Sequence record: OR845764.1
Length of the DNA: 1,648 bases
Direction: 5' to 3' (one strand)
Source of the DNA: Escherichia phage ECO95 1-6-1
Shown: piece after piece, positions 1 to 114 of the stretch
Layout: the number at the start of each line of letters is the position of its first letter
Numbering within the stretch: the first letter of the stretch is position 1
The notes under the pieces: generated by a model
Databases searched by the model: none
The model's input: the letters and a program-made list of their open reading frames with translations, nothing else
What the model was told of the DNA's origin: nothing
Made by a program: the position numbers and the translations under genes

Positions 1-77
1 CCTGCAGGGCGTGGATCAGCGCTTCCTGTTCGGCCAGGCGCTGTTTCAGCAGGAAGATGTCGTCAGAAGAGATGTCG
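1..77. repeat. Copy 1 of an exact 77-bp direct repeat; identical to 1572..1648, which is tnpC 5' coding sequence on the minus strand
   Basis: Direct base-by-base comparison shows 77/77 identity with 1572..1648. Read on the minus strand it encodes the same coiled-coil peptide ([26 protein letters not shown]) and runs off the window start. Confidence 0.95.
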
Positions 78-104
78 GTAAGCGTACAGCGAGGGCCGTA
101 TTGA
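78..104. repeat. Putative right terminal inverted repeat of the IS66-family element (outside-in on + strand: GTAAGCGTACAGCGAGGGCCGTATTGA); inner boundary is approximate
   Basis: Begins with the GTAAGCG heptamer exactly at the breakpoint where the terminal duplication ends, and lies immediately past the tnpC stop. The partner left repeat is not in the window, so its length and pairing cannot be verified. Confidence 0.5.
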
Positions 105-114
105 CGGGGATGTG

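Follow-up and report, generated by a model that had tools for sequence, protein, structure and literature searches.

The window analysed here, a stretch of 1,648 nt, contains insertion sequence only. Its minus strand is occupied by tnpC, the DDE transposase gene of an IS66-family element, which reaches its stop codon at 115-117 and is followed by the non-coding right end of the element and, past that end, by a second run of the tnpC 5' region. The first 5 nt of the CDS (ATGAA) lie outside the window. The minus-strand reading frame from 1647 to 115 is open at the window edge, with a 510-aa product. This product contains the DDE_Tnp_IS66 domain (PF03050, 2.1e-106) together with LZ_Tnp_IS66, zf-IS66 and DDE_Tnp_IS66_C (PF13007, PF13005 and PF13817), which likewise exceed their curated cut-offs. 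The features, with the assignments argued for below, are as follows.

78..1648, minus strand: repeat unit of 1571 nt, matching ISEc8 872-2442 (tnpC nt 6 up to the right terminus)
115..1648, minus strand: tnpC, IS66-family DDE transposase, CDS nt 6-1539 (from Pfam, translation and the CDS of the reference copy L001)
1572..1648, minus strand: start of the unit (77 nt; tnpC nt 6-82), partner of 1-77
78..114, minus strand: ISEc8 right end, non-coding, with the right inverted repeat; the plus strand from 78 reads GTAAGCGTACAGCGAGGGCCGTATTG
70..77, minus strand: target-site duplication (TSD) assigned to an inner ISEc8 copy, AGATGTCG on the plus strand and CGACATCT on the IS strand
1..77, minus strand: assigned to the tnpC of an outer ISEc8 copy resuming past the inner right end, nt 6-82; the same sequence as 1572-1648

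ISEc8 and its right terminus

On the minus strand, window positions 78-1648 are 100% identical to canonical ISEc8 (IS66 family, 2442 bp) over coordinates 872-2442. ISEc8 is a common element of E. coli and is abundant in O157:H7. The reference copy, L001 from the O157:H7 strain TR01, is 2442 bp long, carries tnpA-tnpB-tnpC, starts with GTAAGCGTACATCC, ends with GCTGTACGCTTAC and has the 8-bp TSD AGTGATTG on its flanks. Its annotated tnpC CDS (L001 1996-3534) opens with ATGAACGACATCT and the window match begins at 2001, window base 1648 being CDS nt 6 and IS coordinate 872. ISEc8 matches to the window were found in 4196 of the 5426 complete E. coli genomes, with 3212 records at an identity of at least 99%, and the matched records carry the annotation 'IS66-like element ISEc8 family transposase'. 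The gene order tnpA-tnpB-tnpC was present in every full ISEc8 copy retrieved, while the window spans tnpC from nt 6 only. A 1571-bp IS66-family element with a single ORF was considered and rejected, as the sequence is 100% ISEc8 and tnpA and tnpB lie upstream in all full copies, and as the side at 1648 has no inverted repeat. The element in the window does not differ from ISEc8 itself and is unusual only in its right flank, which is ISEc8 tnpC rather than host DNA.

Window base 78, where GTAAGCG begins 37 nt past the tnpC stop codon, is the final base of ISEc8. Canonical copies diverge there into unrelated flanks, and because identity to them ends at this base we take it to be the true terminus. 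The original prediction had called an IS66-type terminus at this position from its first letters, and that terminus is the ISEc8 right inverted repeat (IRR), 100% identical and beginning GTAAGCGTACAGCG. When the left inverted repeat (IRL), which is itself outside the window, is aligned with the IRR, the two agree at every one of the first 11 nt and at about 19 of the first 26 positions. The family traits that the prediction had named, ends beginning with GTAA and 8-bp duplications, are stated in the literature, where IS66-family inverted repeats are described as 20-30 bp long, beginning GTAAGCG and accompanied by 8-bp direct repeats (PMC11946415). The ISEc8 TSDs seen here are all 8 bp: AGTGATTG in L001, TATGAATC and CGACATCT in L003, GATACAGG and GAATGACC in L004, and GGATAAAC and ACCCCGCC in L006.

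The heptamer GTAAGCG occurs twice in the window (at 78 and 790) against an expected 0.19, a count reached by 4 of 200 shuffles. The copy at 790-796 on the plus strand lies inside tnpC, antisense to the gene, and is internal in every canonical ISEc8 rather than an end. As this copy is internal to tnpC, the heptamer alone is insufficient to call IS66 termini.

Immediately outside the terminus, window positions 1-77 are a 100% identical direct repeat of 1572-1648 at a spacing of 1571 nt, in the same orientation as the tnpC at 115-1648, and the window length is exactly 1571 + 77. This exact repeat bears out what had been noticed from the letters, namely that GTAAGCG begins at base 78 and that the 77 bases before it are the same as the tnpC 5' segment. 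The putative TSD at 70..77 corresponds to tnpC nt 6-13 and to ISEc8 coordinates 872-879, and in its flanking position CGACATCT is present in a single copy in the window (70-77). The window includes the right junction of the structure; the left junction and any unique flank lie outside it.

The nested ISEc8 pair of pNZRM3614

Taken as its reverse complement, the entire window aligns at 100% with positions 4513-6160 of locus L003 of plasmid pNZRM3614 (NZ_CP032794.1), running unbroken over the L003 junction between 6083 and 6084. In this plasmid, a complete ISEc8 lies within a second ISEc8 in the same orientation, so that the annotated gene order is tnpA-tnpB, then tnpA-tnpB-tnpC, then tnpC, and two copies of the 1571-nt unit stand in direct tandem, at L003 4513 and 6084. 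The inner ISEc8 (L003 3642-6083) measures 2442 bp from IRL to IRR, is 1 nt off the canonical sequence and is adjoined by CGACATCT at both ends, before its IRL and after its IRR. At the left junction, ATGAACGACATCT is joined to GTAAGCGTACATCC (in short, ATGAACGACATCT and then GTAAGCG), placing the new IRL after nt 13 of the outer tnpC. At the right junction, GTACGCTTAC is joined to CGACATCTCTTCT (in short, CGCTTAC and then CGACATCT), and the inner IRR is followed by the remainder of the outer tnpC. The outer element begins with its IRL at L003 2763, just after TATGAATC, and its IRR is again followed by TATGAATC, giving a span of 4892 bp with its own TSD on both sides. When the inner copy and one copy of the inner TSD are subtracted, the outer ISEc8 is 2442 bp long and 2 nt off canonical.

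These data bear out what had been predicted for the junction, in each part open to a test. The 8 bp at window 70-77 had been proposed as a TSD, and CGACATCT does flank a complete inner ISEc8 on both sides in pNZRM3614. The check suggested for the far end of the inserted copy, run in public complete plasmids, found the same 8 bp and the first codons of tnpC at the left junction. The prediction had also joined the right end to the tnpC 5' region of an identical copy either by insertion of the IS into itself or by partial tandem duplication; the structure of pNZRM3614 supports the former and speaks against the latter.

A 160-nt query over the right junction was contiguous at 100% in only 3 of the 5426 complete E. 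coli genomes, the carriers being pNZRM3614 and plasmids of the O157:H7 strains AC-3 and AC-5, all of 92,653 bp. A left-junction query returned the identical three genomes, and none of the 5426 had the right junction without the left. As these plasmids are equal in length, a single lineage or event may lie behind all three supporting genomes. PLSDB contained the right junction in NZ_CP032794.1 only, and a search of contigs from one genome per species with a 30-nt junction query gave 0 matches, the E. coli representative among them not necessarily carrying the event. In the literature, NZRM3614 was listed only as an stx-negative O157:H7 strain from Austria, and our search on nested ISEc8 and on this strain found no description of a nested structure.

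We consider it very probable, from this sequence identity, that the window is a collapsed-repeat contig from an O157:H7-type E. coli in which a complete ISEc8 has inserted into a second ISEc8 in the same orientation. The nested pair of the pNZRM3614, AC-3 and AC-5 plasmids matches the whole window at 100%, with the same junction, TSD CGACATCT and orientation, and the source genome of the window would be expected to share the pNZRM3614 architecture. The window differs from the pNZRM3614 pair in having neither the left junction nor unique flanks, and its replicon is assigned by identity only. Both the IS and its ordinary nested arrangement are already known, being present in public O157:H7 plasmid sequences.

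Such a structure is a routine outcome of IS66-family transposition. TnpC, a DDE transposase, would have cut a resident ISEc8 at tnpC nt 6-13 with an 8-bp stagger; the ends of the incoming ISEc8 would have been joined at these cuts, and gap repair would have duplicated the 8 bp. The stagger and the repair are those expected from the established behaviour of DDE transposons and of the IS66 family, for which this is the standard mechanism.

In pNZRM3614, the break in the outer tnpC falls after nt 13, within codon 5 (CDS start ATGAACGACATCT), rather than about 10 codons in as originally proposed, and the 5' stub encodes MNDICKRTS*. Upstream of the outer 3' remnant, the frame stays open for a further 42 nt that contain no ATG, GTG or TTG, and the first in-frame ATG lies 47 codons into the remnant. 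Lacking the original ATG and upstream signals, this part of the gene has presumably lost its expression. The outer copy retains tnpA, tnpB and both ends and has no intact tnpC frame; it should therefore need TnpC in trans from the inner copy. Four end pairs are possible in the composite, giving units of 2442, 3321, 4013 and 4892 bp, and the structure is liable to collapse through homologous recombination between its direct repeats (879 nt and 1571 nt). Nesting thus disables one ISEc8 copy and creates long direct repeats able to recombine. The right junction, GTACGCTTAC followed by CGACATCT, is rare (3/5426) and could mark a pNZRM3614-type plasmid lineage.

Two details of this plasmid deserve mention. 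The outer and inner copies differ by 1 nt, at IS position 12 (L003 2774 versus 3653), where the outer copy has G and the inner and canonical copies have T. With this G, the outer IRL matches the IRR (GTAAGCGTACAGC) over 13 nt rather than 11. The difference at position 12 also argues against the inner copy having simply been made from the outer one, barring a later change of this base. The second detail concerns annotation: in RefSeq, the outer 3' tnpC remnant (L003 6088-7617) appears as WP_115333691.1, an intact transposase of 509 aa whose start is placed at a non-canonical ATC, 5 nt beyond the junction. This call is probably an artefact that masks the nesting, and it inflates the count of functional copies.

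Assembly overlap and other explanations

The 77-nt terminal identity of the window is most likely an assembler k-mer overlap rather than a biological duplication of 77 nt. De Bruijn assemblers give self-overlapping contigs whose terminal overlap equals k, and 77 is a commonly used value of k. Present twice in direct tandem, the sequence between tnpC nt 6 and the right end would form a self-loop in the de Bruijn graph, and the assembler would emit the repeat edge plus the closing edge, which at k = 77 amounts to 1571 + k = 1648 nt. The window resembles such contigs in that its first and last 77 nt are the same and its length is the unit plus 77, and in that the 1571-nt unit has also been recovered alone by another assembler. 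The genomic repeat behind the window is accordingly best read as a 1571-nt direct tandem; the original prediction had regarded the 77-nt stretch itself as duplicated, while the plasmid displays the 1571-nt tandem and the 77 nt are probably overlap. Self-overlapping de Bruijn contigs are often mistaken for small circular replicons, whereas here the loop would be a tandem repeat inside a larger replicon. A nested IS can thus yield a short self-overlapping contig that is mistakable for a small circular replicon or a novel rearrangement, and recognizing its origin averts the error.

The exact 1571-nt unit without the overlap is a stand-alone contig (L014 1-1571, Logan SRR8529113_1316) recorded for 7 samples. 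Because this contig stands alone, the short-read graphs of some isolates must branch exactly at tnpC nt 6, which suggests that the 7 read sets carry the same nested junction. The NCBI contig L013 1-3967 (GCA_044612005.1) is a different case: its first base is IS 873, 1 nt farther on, and beyond the right end it enters another IS66-family tnpB; the junction is absent from it.

Next to a nested insertion still in its original form, the reading that holds up best is that the tandem is derived: recombination between the 879-nt left repeats would leave a full ISEc8 plus a partial copy (872-2442), or more than two units. The window, which holds the right junction only, would look identical under this explanation, and the pair on pMB41_1 (L002), an apparent mirror image of such a collapsed product, indicates that derivatives of this kind exist. 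We nevertheless regard it as unlikely for the window, since the left junction accompanies the right one in all complete genomes having it, the same three.

It is also conceivable that the junction never belonged to in-situ DNA and stems from an excised 1571-bp circle, a chimeric read or an assembly artefact. The window does look like a circular path, consisting of a unit and an overlap, and a circle recombined out of the tandem repeat would bear the same junction. However, three finished plasmids carry this junction in linear form, with the matching TSD at the far end of the inserted copy, and in seven read sets ISEc8 is broken at exactly the same base. An excised circle would need a nested or tandem parent structure anyway, and a chance chimeric joining would not hit the exact IS terminus and reproduce the junction of independent assemblies. 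Origin from a circle or an artefact is therefore very improbable.

A partial duplication of the stretch from tnpC to the right end without transposition, by unequal crossing-over or slippage, is the least plausible of these explanations and extremely unlikely. Taken alone, the window is indeed a head-to-tail repeat of a 1571-nt unit, but one breakpoint coincides to the base with the IS terminus, a new IRL behind tnpC nt 13 is not something that slippage would produce, and the complete plasmids have a whole 2442-bp element with both inverted repeats and an 8-bp direct repeat, the signature of the IS66 family.

An IS circle or head-to-tail dimer can be ruled out, as base 78 adjoins tnpC nt 6-82 (coordinate 872 on) and no IRL. 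In the (IS)2 and abutted-repeat intermediates of the IS30, IS21 and IS3 families, the right inverted repeat abuts the left one with a few bp between them. The window is like these dimers and circles in that, beyond a right end, the same IS carries on in unchanged orientation along a circular-looking path, but its right inverted repeat abuts internal coordinate 872 and the IRL is 2.4 kb off with a matching TSD. Because a full IRL stands 2.4 kb away with the matching 8-bp TSD, we interpret the structure in the window as a completed insertion and not as an intermediate.

Other ISEc8 copies and the lpxM-stcE spacer

Several other replicons contain nested ISEc8 copies, each oriented like its host copy and bounded by a perfect 8-bp TSD. 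In plasmid p7636-1 (L004 3183-8074), this TSD is GATACAGG, at IS 452-459. The nested pair of pYB14-1 (L005 4202-10198) is again in the same orientation, with TSD GCCTGGCC at approximately IS 911-918, and a third copy follows after IS 1969. The chromosome of OkiPb01684 (L006 4202-9093) carries a same-orientation nested copy with TSD GGATAAAC at IS 998-1005. In pMB41_1 (L002 2130-5555), a full IS comes after IS 1-984, the outer 3' part is missing and a single TSD, TTTTCAGT, surrounds the pair, which looks like a nested product collapsed by recombination.

The nested events thus fall at IS coordinates 459, 879, 918, 984, 1005 and 1969, in a sampling biased to the tnpC 5' end and to one strand. 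Most of the sites lie within the first ~140 nt of tnpC, the region and strand toward which our queries were biased. That ISEc8 prefers to insert into ISEc8, in the same orientation and within the first ~140 nt of tnpC, seems unlikely to us; where a genome has 10-20 ISEc8 copies, chance should already produce a few nested events. If such a preference were real, self-targeting would be a self-limiting, self-inactivating bias of the element, or it could alternatively have its basis in a cis-acting transposase striking the sister copy after replication.

The outer copies of pNZRM3614 and p7636-1 both lie between lpxM and stcE and are independent insertions ~150 bp apart, with TSDs TATGAATC and GAATGACC, respectively. 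Both later gained a nested copy. The lpxM-stcE spacer of pO157 (L003 2546-2763 and 7654-8317; L004 3183; L012 2226-3290) is a patchwork of IS3-family orfA remnants, and ISEc8 is absent from this spacer in ordinary pO157. We also considered whether the outer copy is the resident ISEc8 of pO157 and rejected this, as in ordinary pO157 that ISEc8 sits between espP and an IS1 remnant. A GTAAGCGGCTCG motif is found 7 bp past the outer TSD in L003.

Four further candidates (H20, H21, H62 and H68), in which the BLAST match consisted of two joined pieces, were rejected as nested copies because mapping revealed internal ISEc8 deletions only. Deleted copies that keep both ends include those of pSCU-106-1 (L007 5002-7282), which lacks IS 573-735, of the K. 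pneumoniae plasmid pINF237_02 (L008 4130-5647), which lacks IS 1012-1935, of GXU-23-25-310 (L009 4130-5719), which lacks approximately 1139-1976, and of 20AR0354 (L010 4130-5532), which has two internal deletions. Such internally deleted ISEc8 derivatives are potential non-autonomous elements.
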